From the NCBI RefSeq assembly GCF_056746865.1, contig NZ_CM163382.1: a stretch of 64,000 nt of DNA; one strand, given 5' to 3'. Below the pieces are notes generated by a model. It saw only the letters and a list, made by a program, of their open reading frames with translations. It did not search any database and was not told the origin of the DNA. Shown here in pieces: positions 175 to 10,124 of the stretch. Each line of letters opens with the position of its first letter. The first letter of the stretch is position 1. The position numbers were made by a program, and so were the translations under genes.

Positions 175-459
175 ATGCCTTTAGCAGCCAAACTCACCGA
201 CAAAGGCACCCAGCACGACGGTTATTACGAGACCGTCATCACCGCCGGGTCATCCACCGTCTTTATCGATGGTCTTCCCGCAGCCCGTCAGGGAGATCCG
301 CTGACGCCGCATGCTAAACCGAAGCATCCCCCTCATCCCCGTAAAATCGCCAGAGGTTCTTCAACCGTCTTTATTGACGGCCTGCCCGCCGCCAGAAGCG
401 GTGATGCTGTTGACTGCGGCGGCGTGGTTATTGGTGGCGGTACGGTAAATATAGGCTGA
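175..459 (+). CDS. PAAR-domain protein (T6SS spike-sharpening protein), 94 aa
   Basis: Translation contains two GLPAAR(Q/S)GD motifs and a glycine-rich tail; GGAGG RBS 8 nt upstream of ATG; lies 18 nt upstream of vgrG. Confidence 0.75.
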   Translation: MPLAAKLTDKGTQHDGYYETVITAGSSTVFIDGLPAARQGDPLTPHAKPKHPPHPRKIARGSSTVFIDGLPAARSGDAVDCGGVVIGGGTVNIG

Positions 460-477
460 TATGTCTGAGAGGTATTT

Positions 478-2883
478 ATGTCCTTAAAAGGTCTTCGCTT
501 TACGCTGGAGGTTGACGGCCAGGAGCCGGACACCTTTGCAGTGGTGAATTTCAGGTTAATCCAGAACCAGTCATATCCGTTTGTGATGAGTGTGGATGTT
601 GCCAGCGACTCTTTTATGCAGACGGCGGAGATGCTGCTGGAGAAGAAGGCGACACTGACCATCTGGCAGGGCGCAGTGGCGCAGCGTTATGTCACCGGCG
701 TGGTGGCGGGTTTTGGCATGCAGGAGAATAACGGCTGGCAGATGCGTTATCACCTGCGTATTGAGCCGCCGTTATGGCGGTGCGGGCTGCGGCAGAACTT
801 TCGTATCTTCCAGCAGCAGGATATCCGGACGATATCGGCCACGTTACTGAACGAGAACGGCGTCACGGAGTGGACGCCGCTGTTTTATGAGGACCATCCG
901 GCGCGGGAGTTCTGTGTCCAGTACGGGGAGTCGGACCTGGCGTTTCTGTCCCGGCTATGGGCGGAGGAGGGTCTTTTCTTCTTTGAGCGGTTTGCGGCGG
1001 ACAGTCCGGAGCAGAAGCTGACGCTGTGCGACGATGTGGCGGGGCTGTCACAGGCGGGGGAGTTTCCGTTTAACCCGGACACATCGGCAGGAGCGGAGAC
1101 GGAGTGTGTCAGTATGTTCCGTTATGAGGCGCATGTCCGCCCGTCATCGGTGCAGAGCCAGGATTACACCTTTAAGGTGCCGGACTGGCCGGGGATGTAT
1201 GAGCAGCAGGGTGAGAACCTGAACGGACAGCTGGAGCAGTATGAGATATTTGATTATCCGGGAAGGTACAAGGATGAACAGCACGGCAAGGATTTCACGC
1301 TGTACCAGATGGAGAGCCTGCGCAGTGATGCGGAAAAGGCCACAGGGCAGAGTAATTCGCCGAAGCTGTGGCCGGGAACGCGGTTTATGCTGACGGGGCA
1401 TCCGCAGAAGATGCTGAACCGTGAATGGCAGGTGGTACAGAGCATACTGTCAGGAAACCAGCCGCAGGCGCTGCACGGCAGCCAGGGAAAGGGAACCACG
1501 CTGGGCAATCAGTTAGAGGTGATACCGGCGGACCGGACGTGGCGTCCACGGCTGCAAAACAAACCGAAGGTGGACGGGCCACAGAGCGCCATTGTCACCG
1601 GTCCTGCGGGAGAGGAAATCTTCTGCGACGAACACGGACGTGTGCGAGTGCAGTTTCACTGGGACAGGTATAACCCGGCAACGGAGGCGAGTTCATGCTG
1701 GGTGAGGGTGTCGCAGGCGTGGGCGGGGCCGGGGTTCGGTAACCTGGCGATACCACGGGTGGGTCAGGAGGTGATAGTGGACTTCCTGAACGGCGACCCG
1801 GACCAGCCGATAATCATGGGGCGGACGTACCATGAGGACAACCGTTCGCCGGGCGACCTGCCGGGAACGAAGACGCAGATGACCATCCGGTCAAAAACCT
1901 ATAAAGGAAGCGGATTTAACGAGCTGCGGTTTGAAGACGCCACCAGTAATGAGCAGGTGTATATCCATGCCCAGAAGAACATGGATACGGAGGTGCTCAA
2001 CGACCGGACAACGGATGTGAAACATGACCATACGGAAACCATCGGGAACGACCAGAAGATAACGGTGGTGAAGGGGCAGACGGTTCAGGTCGGGACCAGA
2101 AAAGAAGGGGGCCACGACCAGAGTATCACGGTGGCGAACGACCGGTGCATCACGGTACGTAATGACCAGACGCTGCAGGTGACGAATGACCGGACGGTGA
2201 GCGTGAGTAATGATGACGGCCTGTACGTCAGAAATGACCGTAAAGTGACGGTGGAAGGGAAGCAGGAGCATAAGACGACGGGGAACCATATCAGTCTGGT
2301 GGAGGGAAAGCACAGCCTGGTGGTGAAGGGGGACCTGGCGAGGAAGGTGAGTGGCGCGCTGGGGATAAAGGTGGACGGGGATATCGTGCTGGAGAGCAGC
2401 AGCCGGATAAGCCTGAAGGTGAGTGGCTCGTTTGTGGTCATCCATTCAGGGGGCGTGGACATCGTCGGGCCGAAAATCAATCTCAATAGCGGCGGTAGTC
2501 CGGGGACGCCGGTGCCGGCGCTGCAACCGGCGGTGCTGAAGACACTGGGGGATGAGAAGAGTGGTGATGGCAGTGATTCCGGAGAAGAAAATGAAGACTC
2601 TGGAGGGAACTGCGTGACCGGAAGTGGTGGTGATGATCGAGGTGACGATGAGGATGAACCTGAAAAATATACTCTCCAGTTCCATTTTACAGACGATGAC
2701 GGGATACCGTATTCAGAAACCCGCTACATTGCCTTCTTTGAGGATGGCACGCAGACCCGCGGAGAAACGGATGAAGAGGGGTATACAGAGCGTTTTTTTG
2801 TATCTAGCAAACATGAAATTAAAGTGAAGTTGTTATTTGCGAATGATGATTTTCTCTCAATGGAAGGACACTATGGACGATAA
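478..2883 (+). CDS. vgrG: Type VI secretion spike protein VgrG (gp27/gp5-like) with C-terminal acidic linker and extension domain, 801 aa
   Basis: N-terminus MSLKGLRFTLEVDG, conserved core GPAGEEIFCDEHGRVRV...QAWAGPGFGNLAIPRVGQEVIVDFLNGDPDQPIIMGRTYH, followed by gp5-like beta-helix octapeptide repeats (VxNDRTxxV...), then a D/E/G/S-rich linker and about 100 aa C-terminal domain. Confidence 0.9.
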   Translation: MSLKGLRFTLEVDGQEPDTFAVVNFRLIQNQSYPFVMSVDVASDSFMQTAEMLLEKKATLTIWQGAVAQRYVTGVVAGFGMQENNGWQMRYHLRIEPPLWRCGLRQNFRIFQQQDIRTISATLLNENGVTEWTPLFYEDHPAREFCVQYGESDLAFLSRLWAEEGLFFFERFAADSPEQKLTLCDDVAGLSQAGEFPFNPDTSAGAETECVSMFRYEAHVRPSSVQSQDYTFKVPDWPGMYEQQGENLNGQLEQYEIFDYPGRYKDEQHGKDFTLYQMESLRSDAEKATGQSNSPKLWPGTRFMLTGHPQKMLNREWQVVQSILSGNQPQALHGSQGKGTTLGNQLEVIPADRTWRPRLQNKPKVDGPQSAIVTGPAGEEIFCDEHGRVRVQFHWDRYNPATEASSCWVRVSQAWAGPGFGNLAIPRVGQEVIVDFLNGDPDQPIIMGRTYHEDNRSPGDLPGTKTQMTIRSKTYKGSGFNELRFEDATSNEQVYIHAQKNMDTEVLNDRTTDVKHDHTETIGNDQKITVVKGQTVQVGTRKEGGHDQSITVANDRCITVRNDQTLQVTNDRTVSVSNDDGLYVRNDRKVTVEGKQEHKTTGNHISLVEGKHSLVVKGDLARKVSGALGIKVDGDIVLESSSRISLKVSGSFVVIHSGGVDIVGPKINLNSGGSPGTPVPALQPAVLKTLGDEKSGDGSDSGEENEDSGGNCVTGSGGDDRGDDEDEPEKYTLQFHFTDDDGIPYSETRYIAFFEDGTQTRGETDEEGYTERFFVSSKHEIKVKLLFANDDFLSMEGHYGR

Positions 2884-3664
2884 TAATCAAACTTCTGGAC
2901 AACCAAAGCCAGAGCCAGAAGAATGTGTGAAAGAGCAAAAAATAACTGATCATTTTAAAATAATGATTGATAAGGCTCGTAAGGCACAAAAGTTGGTTTT
3001 GATAAAAAGAGCAGATGATCTTTTGAGATGGGGAGCACAGGAGGAATATGATTTCAGTAAGATCTTTGGTGTTAAAGGAAATAAGGAGGTTAATATAAGA
3101 AAATATGGACATAATACAGGTAGGCGCATGAATGCTAGATTTCTTATGATGGATGGTGTGAGAAGATTAATGATTATAGCTAATGATTTAACAATGAGCA
3201 GTTTTATAAATTATACAGGTTGTAATGAATTTGCAGCATTCGTCAGCCCAAGTAAGGATATGCCCTATATAATTAACATAGGCGCAAAATTTGAGTATAG
3301 AGATGGCAAAAAAAATCCAGTAACGGGAAAGGATTCTCATGTTGCTACTTTATGTCATGAAATGTCTCATATTCAGTGGTATTATGGGGATAATAAAAAA
3401 GGTGGTATGTGGTCACAGGATTATACAACTACTGATAAATATTCAACGTGCAAAGAGGATGAAGTTTCATATGACGAACATATCCGTATTGCAACTAAAC
3501 TGATCTCTAAACAAAAAGATCAAATATTCGAGAATGCATATAACATAGAAAGATATTTTGAAATAAGATTAATTGAAAGTGAGATAGACTCGATTAATGA
3601 TGAAATATTAAGCAATTCAGTTAAGAAAAAAATAGCGGAATTAGAAAAAGCACTTCTCCATTAA
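2873..3664 (+). CDS. Putative HExxH zinc-metallopeptidase-like protein; candidate VgrG-associated cargo effector
   Basis: ORF overlapping the vgrG stop (ATG at 2873, alternative ATG at 2837); motif ATLCHEMSHIQW (HExxH); abrupt drop to AT-rich composition; no confident family assignment. Confidence 0.5.
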   Translation: MDDNNQTSGQPKPEPEECVKEQKITDHFKIMIDKARKAQKLVLIKRADDLLRWGAQEEYDFSKIFGVKGNKEVNIRKYGHNTGRRMNARFLMMDGVRRLMIIANDLTMSSFINYTGCNEFAAFVSPSKDMPYIINIGAKFEYRDGKKNPVTGKDSHVATLCHEMSHIQWYYGDNKKGGMWSQDYTTTDKYSTCKEDEVSYDEHIRIATKLISKQKDQIFENAYNIERYFEIRLIESEIDSINDEILSNSVKKKIAELEKALLH

Positions 3665-3716
3665 CTAATAAGTCGAGAAATATATTAATGCTGCAAGCTA
3701 TAAAAAAATCATAATA

Positions 3717-4346
3717 ATGACAATCGTAAATATTATATTTTTCTATTCCTTTCAATCGACTGCGGATGAAATGGTTTTAATAAAAAAATACGGGTTTGGG
3801 CTTGAGAGAGATATCAAAGGAAGGCCATTAATTTATCCTATCGAAAATTATGATGAGTGTAAGAAAAAATGCAATCATATGAATTATATAGCGGATGTCA
3901 ATGCTCAATTAGCTATGAGTAAAAAAAACAACAGGATTTTTGCTAACATAACCTTTACTAACAATAGCTCTACCACGTATTTTTTTTCTAAATATTACCT
4001 ACCTATGAAAGTAAAAGATGGAAAAGGAGATGAATATGATGCGATATGCAAAAAACCATTCAGAATCAACTCTGGGAATATCACGTTGGACTACTTAGGT
4101 GGTTCATGTCCTTTTGAAATTAATACGAATCCTGAACGGTGGAATACTATTAAACCAGGTCGTAGTTTTTTGTTGAGTATAACCTTAAATGATATGTATG
4201 CCTTTATACCAGGAGATAATTATTATTTTATAAAATCATCTGGCTATAAATTTGTTAATGACAAGTGGTTTACACTCAAATCAATCAATAATATTTTTCT
4301 TTATTTTTTAAATTTAAAAATTAATTGTGCTGATGATTTTTTTTGA
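3717..4346 (+). CDS. Hypothetical protein, AT-rich; candidate immunity/accessory protein of the vgrG cargo
   Basis: 209-aa ORF immediately downstream of the HExxH gene, same strand; no recognisable motif; start codon uncertain. Confidence 0.35.
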   Translation: MTIVNIIFFYSFQSTADEMVLIKKYGFGLERDIKGRPLIYPIENYDECKKKCNHMNYIADVNAQLAMSKKNNRIFANITFTNNSSTTYFFSKYYLPMKVKDGKGDEYDAICKKPFRINSGNITLDYLGGSCPFEINTNPERWNTIKPGRSFLLSITLNDMYAFIPGDNYYFIKSSGYKFVNDKWFTLKSINNIFLYFLNLKINCADDFF

Positions 4347-4528
4347 TATTAATAATTTTACTACATGTGATAATTTGTTATTAGATGAAAAAAAATACTT
4401 TTTTATTAATCAGTTATGGGCAATTGAGGATGAAAAAAATTCTATTTACGTCACCCCTGATGAAATTTCTATAAGTATAGACGGCGATAACTTAAAGTTG
4501 CCATATTAGGAATCTGTGAAAGAACAAG

Positions 4529-5017
4529 GTGCGCCGCTTTTTTGTACTAAATAATTCGCATTTTAGTCACGGCAGAGAAGAAATCCATCTTCATATTGTT
4601 TGCGATGTCCCTGATGAACTTATTGATTTCACGTTTGAATGGAAAGGTCAGAAGAAATTATGCGTGGCAGTCTCCTTTTGGTCAATAATAGCAGAACAAA
4701 AGAAAGAGCCAGAAATGACGGTCAGATATTATATCAGTTCTGCTGATTTAACCGCAAAAAAGTTCGCCACAGCGATACGAAATCACTGGCACGTGGAGAA
4801 TAAGCTGCACTGGCGTCTGGACGTGGTAATGAACGAAGACGACTGCAAAATAAGAAGAGGAAACGCCGCAGAATTATTTTCAGGGATACGGCACATCGCT
4901 ATTAATATTTTAACGAATGATAAGGTATTCAAGGCAGGGTTAAGACGCAAGATGCGAAAAGCAGCTATGGACAGAGACTACCTCGCGTCAGTCCTTGCGG
5001 GGAGCGGGCTTTCGTAA
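4529..5017 (+). pseudogene. H-repeat (ISAs1-family) transposase, C-terminal fragment
   Basis: Translation ...[63 protein letters not shown]...[20 protein letters not shown] matches the C-terminal half of Rhs-associated H-rpt proteins (YhhI/YdcC-like); N-terminal half is absent. Confidence 0.75.
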
Positions 5018-5125
5018 TCTTGCCCTGGCGATCGAATAGCGCAGATGACGGTGCTCTAAATTTGAATCTAATAAGCCGGTGTTATTTTTCATCCACTATT
5101 AAAATCTTGACACAACGAGGCAACA

Positions 5126-5686
5126 ATGAAAAAAAGCAAAAAAATTAAAACAATGAACCATCAAAATAATAGCGGGATACAAAATCAACCAGACTATCAC
5201 ATCGAAATAGAAAGAAAAAATATGGTAAGATTGCTTGATGAACGTATTGATAAAGTTTACGGTTCATTGCTAGGACCAATGAAAAAGAAAAATATAGATA
5301 AAATACGTCATTTTACACTTGATGTAATGGTGTTTATTCTTGACACGAACCCTCGTGTTTGTAATAAATTATCCAGGGAAATAATATCTTTAGCGCAAAA
5401 TACCTTCATTGAAAAAAACGTTAATTTTTCAACTTTTAATAATGAACAGCATAGAATAAGGGAGTATATGAATGAAGGTGGTGGAATACGATGGTTTACA
5501 TGGGATAACCCCGAGATATCTTTTGTTCGTGCATCTTTTGGCCTTTTTGTCAAAATGGAAACAAAAGGTGATCATGAACATACACTAAGTGACACATTTC
5601 TTCAGATTGTTGAGTGTGTTAATTTAAATATAGGACTTATTGCAAAAGATGAACTGGTAAAAATCATCAATAAACACTTTATGTAA
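5126..5686 (+). CDS. Hypothetical protein (186 aa), AT-rich island ORF
   Basis: Clean ORF with A-rich upstream region; no recognisable domain; located in the low-GC region downstream of vgrG. Confidence 0.35.
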   Translation: MKKSKKIKTMNHQNNSGIQNQPDYHIEIERKNMVRLLDERIDKVYGSLLGPMKKKNIDKIRHFTLDVMVFILDTNPRVCNKLSREIISLAQNTFIEKNVNFSTFNNEQHRIREYMNEGGGIRWFTWDNPEISFVRASFGLFVKMETKGDHEHTLSDTFLQIVECVNLNIGLIAKDELVKIINKHFM

Positions 5687-6045
5687 AAATATACTTCTGT
5701 ATGAAGTTATAATAATACAGTGAAAATCATCAAATTATTAATTAATGATGCTCTTTGTTATTATTTACTTTTTACAATTGAATCAGGGGTTTTATTTTCT
5801 GTAGTAAAGTTGTATTTTTGCTAAAGGTGATAAAGTACAGGTGTTTATATTAAATTAGAACTCCCCTTAATTATCATAAATACAAAGAGGTGAAAACATG
5901 CGGGGGTGTTTTCGTTAAATAATACCATGGTGAATTAATAACATGCTATCAGTGATATACATATTTTCTCTAACAAAGTTTTAGTAAAATTACGCGTAGT
6001 AAGAAGATTCCGCCAAAGATTCCATATAATAATATTAAGGTTGTT

Positions 6046-6681
6046 ATGAATAAAGGTAATAGATTACAACAGTTAGAAGATGCGTGTCGTGATATTATTA
6101 AAATTAACATGTGGTATGAACTCCCCGATTATGTATTTTTTTCAATATCTGACACCATCGATGGGACGAGTGATGAATTCGCAATAAATGTGTATAAAAA
6201 TATCGATAAAAGTCTTCTTGAAATATTATTGCATCCATCTGTTTTACTGTCAGTTGTTGAGTCCTTACAAAGTAATACTATAGCTGAGTATATCGTGAAA
6301 TTGTCTGAAATAGAGATGAATTATGACGACTTGCTAATATCGGATGTTAAATCATGTCTTTTTATCAACTATGGATTCAATAACAGTGAATCGGTTGCGC
6401 TATTTAATAAGATTTACCGCGAATTAAAAGATATTGTAAAATCATCAAGAGTACATATAGATCATGAGAAAGATATTTTTGATGGCCTTAATCAAATCTT
6501 GGCTTTTTCCGATAATAATAAACATGAGTATTTTTTATATATAAAGGCATATTGGCTCAGTTTATACTTTTGTGAAATTTCACAGAACGTGAGAGAAAGA
6601 GATAAGTTGTCATTTTATTATAATGAATTTTCTGTCCGATTTCCTAATGTTGTCCTATATCCGTCATGCTACAAATTGTAA
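6046..6681 (+). CDS. Hypothetical protein (211 aa), AT-rich island ORF
   Basis: Clean ORF in the low-GC region; no recognisable domain. Confidence 0.35.
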   Translation: MNKGNRLQQLEDACRDIIKINMWYELPDYVFFSISDTIDGTSDEFAINVYKNIDKSLLEILLHPSVLLSVVESLQSNTIAEYIVKLSEIEMNYDDLLISDVKSCLFINYGFNNSESVALFNKIYRELKDIVKSSRVHIDHEKDIFDGLNQILAFSDNNKHEYFLYIKAYWLSLYFCEISQNVRERDKLSFYYNEFSVRFPNVVLYPSCYKL

Positions 6682-8734: not shown

Positions 8735-9265
8735 GTGCAGTTTATGAAACATTCATTTGAAGTAAAACTTGCCGCTGTAAATCATTACCTGGCTGGTCAT
8801 GCAGGCATCATTTCTACGGTAAAACTCTTTCAACTTTCTCACACCAGCCTCTCACACTGGATTAATCTTTTTCTTCTTCACGGTCCTCGGGCACTGGATT
8901 GCAGACACAAGCGTAGCTATTCTCCTGAAGATAAACTTTGCGTGGTTCTTTATGCTCTCGGGCATTCTGAGTCTCTACCCCGGGTAGCTGCCCGGTTTAA
9001 CATTCCCAGCCACAACACGGTTAAAAACTGGATAAAAGGCTACCGCAAATCTGGTAATGAGGCCTTTATCAGGCGCAGGAAGGAGAAAAGCATGACCCGT
9101 TCTGATGATACCCATGAAAACGAGGCAAACATGACGCCGGAAGAGATGAAGAATGAGCTGCGTTATCTTCGCGCAGAAAATGCATATCTGAAAGCCATGC
9201 AGGAGCATCTCCTGGAAAAAAAGCGCCAGGAGCTGGAGAAAAAACGAAAGTCATCCGGAGCCTGA
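8735..9265 (+). CDS. IS3-family transposase OrfA (HTH DNA-binding and leucine-zipper part)
   Basis: 176 aa; HTH region followed by heptad leucine repeat (NELRYLRAENAYLKAMQEHLLEKKRQELEKKRK); ends just after an A6 run. Confidence 0.8.
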   Translation: MQFMKHSFEVKLAAVNHYLAGHAGIISTVKLFQLSHTSLSHWINLFLLHGPRALDCRHKRSYSPEDKLCVVLYALGHSESLPRVAARFNIPSHNTVKNWIKGYRKSGNEAFIRRRKEKSMTRSDDTHENEANMTPEEMKNELRYLRAENAYLKAMQEHLLEKKRQELEKKRKSSGA

Positions 9266-9369
9266 GGTGCGGACACTGCCAGTCTGACCTGTTAAAGGCT
9301 GCAGGGCTGGCCAGAAGCACGCTGTACTACCAGCTGTCACTGCAGAAGGCTAAGGACAAGTATGCTGAT

Positions 9370-10124
<755 letters not shown>

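Follow-up and report, generated by a model that had tools for sequence, protein, structure and literature searches.

A transthyretin-like domain at the C-terminus of an Escherichia coli VgrG probably serves to load an M35-family peptidase encoded directly downstream

This study concerns the C-terminal extension of a VgrG spike protein of a type VI secretion system (T6SS), encoded in a stretch of 64,000 nucleotides of an Escherichia coli chromosome (contig NZ_CM163382.1 of the NCBI RefSeq assembly GCF_056746865.1; the whole stretch that was analysed is hereafter called the window). The open reading frame (ORF) of vgrG (positions 478-2883, plus strand, TAA stop at 2881-2883) encodes a protein of 801 aa, and its last 111 residues probably constitute a cargo-loading module of the transthyretin (TTR) adaptor type, operating by the mechanism proposed below (we put the probability of this reading, mechanism included, at roughly 0.75). 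An earlier sequence-only reading of this DNA had proposed that the extension recruits the HExxH effector encoded by the next gene; this proposal is supported by the analyses reported here, and we infer that the two proteins bind each other. The features on which the argument draws are:

478-2517, plus strand: core of VgrG (aa 1-680), consisting of the gp27-like base, the OB domain and the gp5-like beta-helix needle (TIGR03361, E-value 6.5e-181; Pfam; PDB)
2548-2658, plus strand: linker of acidic, low-complexity sequence (aa 691-727, GDEKSGDGSDSGEENEDSGGNCVTGSGGDDRGDDEDE), read as a flexible tether from its composition, its net charge of -13 and its low model confidence
2659-2835, plus strand: TTR-like beta-sandwich core of the C-terminal domain (aa 728-786)
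2758-2790, plus strand: approximate recombination breakpoint within the TTR-like domain, placed by identity to strain CFT073 and by GC content at third codon positions (GC3)
2836-2880, plus strand: C-terminal tail of VgrG (aa 787-801, FANDDFLSMEGHYGR), which varies between effector clades and whose last codons double as the translation-initiation region of the effector
2862-2875, plus strand: Shine-Dalgarno (SD) sequence GGAAGGA (2862-2868) and ATG (2873-2875) of the effector gene, lying within the vgrG codons for E-G-H-Y-G and giving an 11-nt overlap with the vgrG stop
2873-3664, plus strand: gene of the proposed cargo effector, a zinc metallopeptidase of the M35 (aspzincin) family of 263 aa, with HEMSH at about nt 3356-3370
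2927-2941, plus strand: beta-strand predicted in the N-terminal part of the effector (aa 19-23, VKEQK), in the motif C-[VI]-x4-[IV]-T-[DN]-x-F-K, the candidate strand for complementing the sandwich

The VgrG core contains the Pfam domains Phage_GPD (34-328), Phage_base_V (385-451) and Gp5_trimer_C (468-621), and is matched by the VgrG1 structures PDB 4MTK and 7Q5P (E about 1e-88), whose alignments stop at about aa 679. Pfam, NCBIfam TIGR03361 and all solved VgrGs align no further than about aa 680 ('...NLNSGGSPGT') and the protein runs on to aa 801, which bears out the earlier claim of an extension beyond the gp5-like repeats. The extension had been located at 2500-2883; it exists, but position 2500 lies about 16 codons 5' of the linker and still belongs to the end of the needle. 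The G/S/D/E-rich stretch quoted in that reading corresponds exactly to the 37 aa of the linker, of which 86% are D, E, G, S or N as compared with 33% in the rest of VgrG. In an AlphaFold2 model based on an alignment of 100 sequences the predicted local distance difference test score (pLDDT) is about 50 over aa 681-724 and the linker is predicted to be disordered. Identity at the DNA level to strain 33F4 decreases to 50% in the linker, and relatives retain its composition and not its sequence or length, as expected of an entropic tether. A DUF2345 extension between gp5 and the TTR-like domain was not detected in the VgrG of the window using PF10106 and PF13296, and no DUF2345 gene or domain is present in the window; the protein was therefore filed under TTR adaptors only and not under COG4532.

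The same model presents aa 731-786 as a five-stranded beta-sandwich with pLDDT 88-96, followed by a short, weakly supported helix and a floppy tail, the pLDDT of which falls from 84 to 43 when the domain is modelled alone and is about 37 in the fused model described below. The domain predicted earlier is thus beta-rich from aa 728 on, but instead of about 100 aa it comprises 74 aa, i.e., a domain of about 60 aa and a tail of 14 aa. As a single sequence it matched no Pfam family even at E<=10 and no PDB entry for that part. A word-indexed search with the 74-aa domain (15 fragments or frameshifted artefacts) gave way to a profile search run exhaustively over 1.84 billion representative proteins, which produced 144 hits (E<=1e-3). 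Some of the weak hits (P0060, P0081, P0088 and others) were beta-propeller proteins with PD40/TolB-like repeats; these were excluded as spurious 'DG..TD..G'-like matches. Among the 112 domain copies kept, 107 end at most 22 residues from the C-terminus of the protein, and each of the remaining ones is followed by a second copy in tandem; upstream of the domain, the inspected sequences show a VgrG beta-helix or a DUF2345-type region. A family of this size, located mostly at the C-terminus of VgrGs, indicates that the ORF has not been lengthened by chance. Two tandem TTR-like domains were observed at the end of several VgrGs (P0016 at 493-3045 of locus L005, P0017, P0020, P0025 and P0036), and the tandem VgrG of L005 is followed by a 303-aa protein without known family.

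None of 100 members of the domain family matched a Pfam family at E<=1e-3. Compared with the PDB, the family profile matched residues 9-67 of 6H56 (E 2.4e-10), the TTR-like segment that precedes the metallopeptidase of VgrG2b from Pseudomonas aeruginosa in the domain layout given in PMC6899460 and PMC7043769, and residues 781-835 of 6SJL (E 1.3e-9), the TTR domain of VgrG1 from enteroaggregative E. coli (EAEC). The domain has the transthyretin/prealbumin-like beta-sandwich fold, its closest relatives by sequence and fold are VgrG TTR adaptors, and it follows the gp5 needle of a genuine VgrG as the very last part of the chain. The extension is hence of the transthyretin-like kind that had been suspected.

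The ORF at 2873-3664 carries the HExxH motif ascribed to it earlier (HEMSH), and its product combines this zinc site and a downstream Asp ligand with an aspzincin fold. No significant match to PF14521 or NCBIfam was found for this protein (PF14521 only at E 0.005 over 56 residues), which is a divergent M35 family member recognised by its fold. Family members have in common a polar leader at the N-terminus, after which comes C-[VI]-x4-[IV]-T-[DN]-x-F-K-x-M, an HExxH to which an Asp is added some 17 residues further on, and NAYNIERYFE as a C-terminal motif. The N-terminal motif is kept in 11 family members paired with the TTR-like domain and in 11 unpaired ones. In contrast to the aspzincins GfMEP (1G12), AsaP1 (2X3A) and deuterolysin (1EB6), the T6SS protein has an additional N-terminal region of about 70 aa (polar leader, strand and two helices), lacks a signal peptide or propeptide and falls below the Pfam threshold, and in the window clade it possesses a C-terminal helix of about 45 aa.

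The gene neighbourhood was compared for 11 loci of the M35 family, namely the window, E. coli CFT073 (L002), 33F4 (L003), Trabulsiella (L009), Salmonella (L011), Buttiauxella (L012), Franconibacter (L013), E. coli L014 and L015, a metagenome contig (L016) and Rahnella (L017). In all of them the VgrG preceding the M35 protein ends in the TTR-like domain and, as in the window, effector and immunity-like genes lie directly downstream of vgrG. The M35 gene starts 8-14 nt before the vgrG stop in 10 of the 11 loci and two nt after it in L013. The pairing occurs on two spike backbones, a short needle with acidic linker and a DUF2345-extended needle without it; in L013-L017 DUF2345 precedes the TTR-like domain. 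The 33F4 locus is situated within the main T6SS-1 cluster, after hcp. A genome scan with one alignment yielded only four loci and a metagenome scan with another 49, nearly all of the latter redundant E. coli types. At other loci the partner of the TTR-like domain is an Ntox44 protein (L006) or one of several unrelated proteins of 300-410 aa (L005, L008, L010, L060-L067); it is therefore not peptidase-specific, which fits a general adaptor with specificity set by a variable part. An N-terminal strand 'V-x-Q-Q-x-I-[ST]' common to the cargoes was considered, since it occurs in four non-M35 loci (L005, L006, L008 and L010); it is missing from the L060-L067 family, and so short a motif does not allow statistics; it is not claimed here.

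Two observations at M35 loci are recorded separately. In L014 and L015, where the locus lies between clpV-like and tssM/IcmF-like genes and is read here as a T6SS-2 cluster, a DUF2345-type vgrG (998-3508) ending in the same TTR-like domain is followed by a gene (3501-4289) for a 'hypothetical protein' of 246-262 aa with HELTH or HELSH (cluster of 754 member sequences). This protein is a distant M35 family member (30-34% identity) and a candidate effector for the T6SS-2 cluster. In E. coli MS 200-1 (L004, 5175-7970) an IS21-family element (istA/istB) is inserted in the TTR-like coding region and separates it from the M35 gene, and is a natural knock-out of the adaptor.

The close juxtaposition of domain and peptidase could also have originated from the splitting of an 'evolved' VgrG. 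VgrG2b carries its TTR-like segment, the very segment matched by the family profile, directly ahead of a zinc metallopeptidase in one polypeptide (PMC6899460), and the vgrG and M35 ORFs of the window overlap by only 11 nt; the domain would then be a leftover that binds nothing, and the peptidase would be loaded via PAAR, Hcp or an unseen adaptor. We consider such an origin unlikely, as the core of the domain is conserved over about 100 lineages and the M35 peptidase is unrelated to that of VgrG2b.

Sequence comparison with CFT073, which carries an M35 gene of a different clade at the same chromosomal site, locates an exchange junction inside the domain. In 60-nt windows the identity is 77-100% (mostly >=90%) up to about nt 2757 and about 50% beyond. 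GC3 declines from 0.74 for the vgrG core to 0.46 for the linker, stands at 0.56 over the beginning of the domain (2651-2760) and is 0.29 over the last 41 vgrG codons (2761-2883), close to the values of the M35 gene (0.25) and of the immunity gene (0.27). Overall GC content drops from 58% to about 30%, with the drop starting exactly at the region of the C-terminal extension. From the collapse of identity and the fall of GC3 inside the domain it follows that the unit of exchange consists of the last strand and the tail, the effector gene and the immunity gene. The type of tail tracks the M35 clade: '…EGHYGR' occurs with enzymes of 263-268 aa, 'TNDYYIFEVNCNEHQ' with an enzyme of 200 aa, and '…NIDMxxGGVxE' and its relatives with a third clade. 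The clade-specific tail (…EGHYGR) was also considered as the binding determinant; this idea is weakened, since the tail remains unplaced in both models and the embedded SD and ATG account for its conservation.

Displaced genes were observed at the same site in other strains. CFT073 (6921-7891 of L002) possesses its own immunity gene at the site, and further downstream the immunity gene of the window type (…KKIIIMTIVNIIFFYSFQSTADEMVLIKKYGFG…) survives in a frameshifted form, which is an orphan left by cassette displacement. In E. coli ESDR8 (1315-4495 of L068) the same yncG-yddH site is occupied by PAAR, a vgrG that is truncated, and the cysteine protease effector and immunity genes cpe1/cpi1. 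Behind them lies a truncated, orphan M35 gene, directly ahead of which the last ~46 nt of a window-type vgrG tail are retained. Displaced effector modules pile up at the yncG-yddH site in the manner of Rhs loci.

A more far-reaching interpretation, which we put forward only tentatively and hold to be possible rather than probable, is that the domain is a two-part adaptor doubling as the recombination joint of VgrG cargo cassettes and belongs to an unannotated family that deploys M35 toxins. The 5' two-thirds (…FHFTDDDGIPYSETRYIAFFEDG…GETD.EGYTE) would be a conserved anchor common to different VgrG backbones, the last strand and the tail would be swapped together with the effector and immunity genes, and displaced orphan effector and immunity genes would be left downstream. 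Such an adaptor would be comparable to the demarcation motifs found in Rhs and CdiA toxins.

An Ig-like sandwich might alternatively serve as a target- or envelope-binding module of the adhesin or CnaB/Big-like kind, helping to engage or cross the prey envelope independently of cargo. This is improbable, marginally more so than a split remnant: by sequence as well as by fold the domain is closest to VgrG TTR adaptors and not to adhesins, and neither the exchange of the 3' part of the domain together with the effector nor a tail type that tracks the effector clade is expected of a generic envelope binder.

The M35 ORF lies in another frame than vgrG and has its own SD and ATG, so that toxin and VgrG are not parts of the same polypeptide. 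In all 11 M35 pairs SD and ATG fall within the last six or seven vgrG codons. In the junction DNA of 16 loci, every M35 pair and four of the five other loci had an SD-like run rich in purines among the final vgrG codons and a start that overlaps or abuts the stop. The recurrent E-G and G-G residues of the tail are due to this embedded SD and ATG, and a start signal inside the last vgrG codons implies translational coupling. A programmed +1 ribosomal frameshift in the overlap at 2837-2880, fusing VgrG to the peptidase in a fraction of translations, would make use of the M35 frame (+1 relative to vgrG) being open for 12 codons upstream of the ATG, but is highly improbable given that the overlap contains no slippery motif, that the strong SD and ATG at the right spacing in 11 of 11 pairs are the signature of re-initiation or coupling, and that the start lies after the stop in L013.

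For modelling the contact, VgrG aa 719-801, a 30-residue GS linker and the M35 protein were folded as one chain, a single-chain stand-in for a multimer, using a block alignment of 11 paired, 10 M35-only and 41 domain-only rows. The model (predicted template modelling score 0.71, mean pLDDT 83.6) shows a new strand at M35 aa 19-23 (model residues 132-136, pLDDT about 71) in the conserved N-terminal motif, and the first strand of the domain is extended from 3 to 8 residues; structure matches of the sandwich gain about 15-20 aligned residues. The model weakly suggests that the N-terminal strand of the effector extends the sandwich, as published for Tle1-VgrG1.

Under the proposed mechanism, the 37-residue acidic disordered tether would allow the three chains to leave the tip of the trimeric gp5 needle around PAAR, so that the PAAR protein encoded just upstream could still cap the needle. 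At the end of each tether the TTR-like half-sandwich of roughly 60 residues would capture one M35 peptidase per VgrG chain, most likely by beta-strand (fold) complementation in which effector aa about 19-25 (...CVKEQKIT...) join the edge of the sandwich. Coupled translation would make VgrG and effector close together, the spike would deliver the peptidase into a neighbouring bacterium, where it would probably act in the periplasm, and the producer would be protected by the downstream protein with the hydrophobic N-terminus. The 3' third of the domain (last strand and tail), the effector gene and the immunity gene travel as one low-GC cassette, the exchange junction lying in the conserved 5' part.

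The TTR domain of EAEC VgrG1 and its role in loading Tle1 were reportedly described by Flaugnatti et al. in 2016 and 2020. According to passages of PMC10715212, PMC9860674 and PMC10433429, this C-terminal domain (PDB 6SJL) loads the phospholipase Tle1; the passages of PMC10715212 further place it on a flexible linker and have PAAR cap the needle independently of it. AlphaFold predicts the same arrangement for Tle3 and VgrG-AIEC (PMC9860674). In EAEC VgrG1 the needle is extended by DUF2345 and helices precede the TTR domain, whereas the VgrG of the window has neither and carries the strongly acidic 37-aa linker instead; the cargo is an M35 peptidase and not the Tle1 lipase. Tle1 makes extra contacts with the needle and base and is inhibited when bound, which may or may not apply to the M35 protein. 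P. aeruginosa VgrG2b (PA0262; PDB 6H56; PMC6899460) shares the TTR-like segment (the best profile hit) beside a zinc metallopeptidase toxin and a downstream immunity gene for a protein that is periplasmic or hydrophobic at its N-terminus. Its peptidase is of a different family (DUF4157-like) and fused in the same chain with DUF2345 before it, in contrast to the separate, translationally coupled M35-fold protein of the window. For the TTR adaptors of P. aeruginosa VgrG4b/PldA and VgrG5/PldB (PMC6684961, PMC7043769), likened here by description and not by direct sequence comparison, swapping the TTR domain swaps cargo specificity (PMC7043769), which matches the cassette-type co-inheritance seen here; their cargoes are phospholipases D and their VgrGs of the DUF2345 type. 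The E. coli PAR locus with VgrG, a stand-alone DUF2345 protein and an M35 toxin (PMC10673891) also encodes a T6SS cargo metallopeptidase under the name M35; it is toxic to bacteria, and the immunity protein encoded downstream neutralises it. At that locus the toxin is linked to VgrG through the separate DUF2345 protein, and the likeness of the two 'M35' toxins is drawn from their name. A literature search on peptidase M35 with type VI secretion found no paper, the one report on an E. coli 'M35' T6SS toxin concerning this DUF2345-mediated locus.

The genes flanking vgrG and its effector were annotated as follows:

175-459, plus strand: PAAR protein gene (94 aa), the first gene of the PAAR-vgrG-effector-immunity island (full-length match to NCBIfam NF033420 T6SS_PAAR_dom, E 1.4e-46, in agreement with the RefSeq annotation)
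3717-4509, plus strand: putative immunity gene whose product has a hydrophobic N-terminus (MTIVNIIFFYSFQSTA); homologous ORFs directly follow the M35 gene in related loci

The island is inserted between yncG and yddH/nhoA, and its genes are, in order, PAAR (175-459), vgrG (478-2883), 'peptidase M35' (2873-3664), a hypothetical (3717-4346), an ISAs1 transposase fragment and two further hypotheticals. The first 7 kb of the window are 100% identical to strain EF5-18-41 and present in their entirety in only 174 of 5426 complete E. coli genomes, nearly all of which match some part of them; on this reading the part matched is the vgrG core. DNA of the VgrG C-terminal domain is found in 659 of these genomes (~12%), including CFT073 and avian pathogenic strains.

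The putative immunity gene is split in the window into two overlapping ORFs (3717-4346, 209 aa; 4327-4509, 60 aa), apparently by a frameshift relative to intact homologues of 266-286 aa. The latter are single ORFs in 33F4 (L003, 279 aa), Escherichia sp. (L007, 273), Trabulsiella (L009, 286), Salmonella (L011, 276) and Buttiauxella (L012, 266). The split also occurs in strains that are 100% identical over the island and represents either a fixed frameshift or a tolerated truncation. An upstream GTG start that would provide a classical signal peptide was rejected because the codon is GTC. Homologues have clear signal or anchor sequences; together with the hydrophobic N-terminus, these suggest that the effector acts in the periplasm, as VgrG2b does.

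Downstream of the effector-immunity pair, the region 4529-6681 of the window holds, besides the ISAs1 transposase fragment, two ORFs of low GC content (5126-5686, 186 aa; 6046-6681, 211 aa), which had no match in an NCBIfam search and may be further orphan immunity or cargo remnants. Unrelated to the VgrG extension are an IS1397 copy (IS3 family) just past nhoA (8735-10100) and a gene for a leucine-rich-repeat protein between narU and ompC (21600-22900; 5602-6858 of L018).

The domain is a TTR-type cargo adaptor of an already known kind and mechanism and introduces no new principle. Distinctive in comparison with the characterised TTR adaptors are the lack of DUF2345, the long acidic tether, an M35 aspzincin in place of a lipase as cargo, and the recombination junction inside the adaptor. 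The VgrG TTR adaptor, hitherto described with lipase cargoes and DUF2345-type spikes, would thus also operate on a plain short needle with an acidic tether. An orphan PAAR-vgrG island is assigned a concrete loading mechanism and cargo, the gain being annotation and experimental leads, and an uncharacterised family of M35-fold T6SS peptidase toxins emerges in Enterobacterales, with one clade in the T6SS-2 cluster of E. coli. As the adaptor has no Pfam model, it is overlooked by domain-based surveys of vgrG loci. Should the tentative two-part reading be true, a domain family without a Pfam model would let E. coli, including the T6SS-2 cluster of extraintestinal pathogenic E. coli, deploy an uncharacterised family of M35 peptidase toxins.

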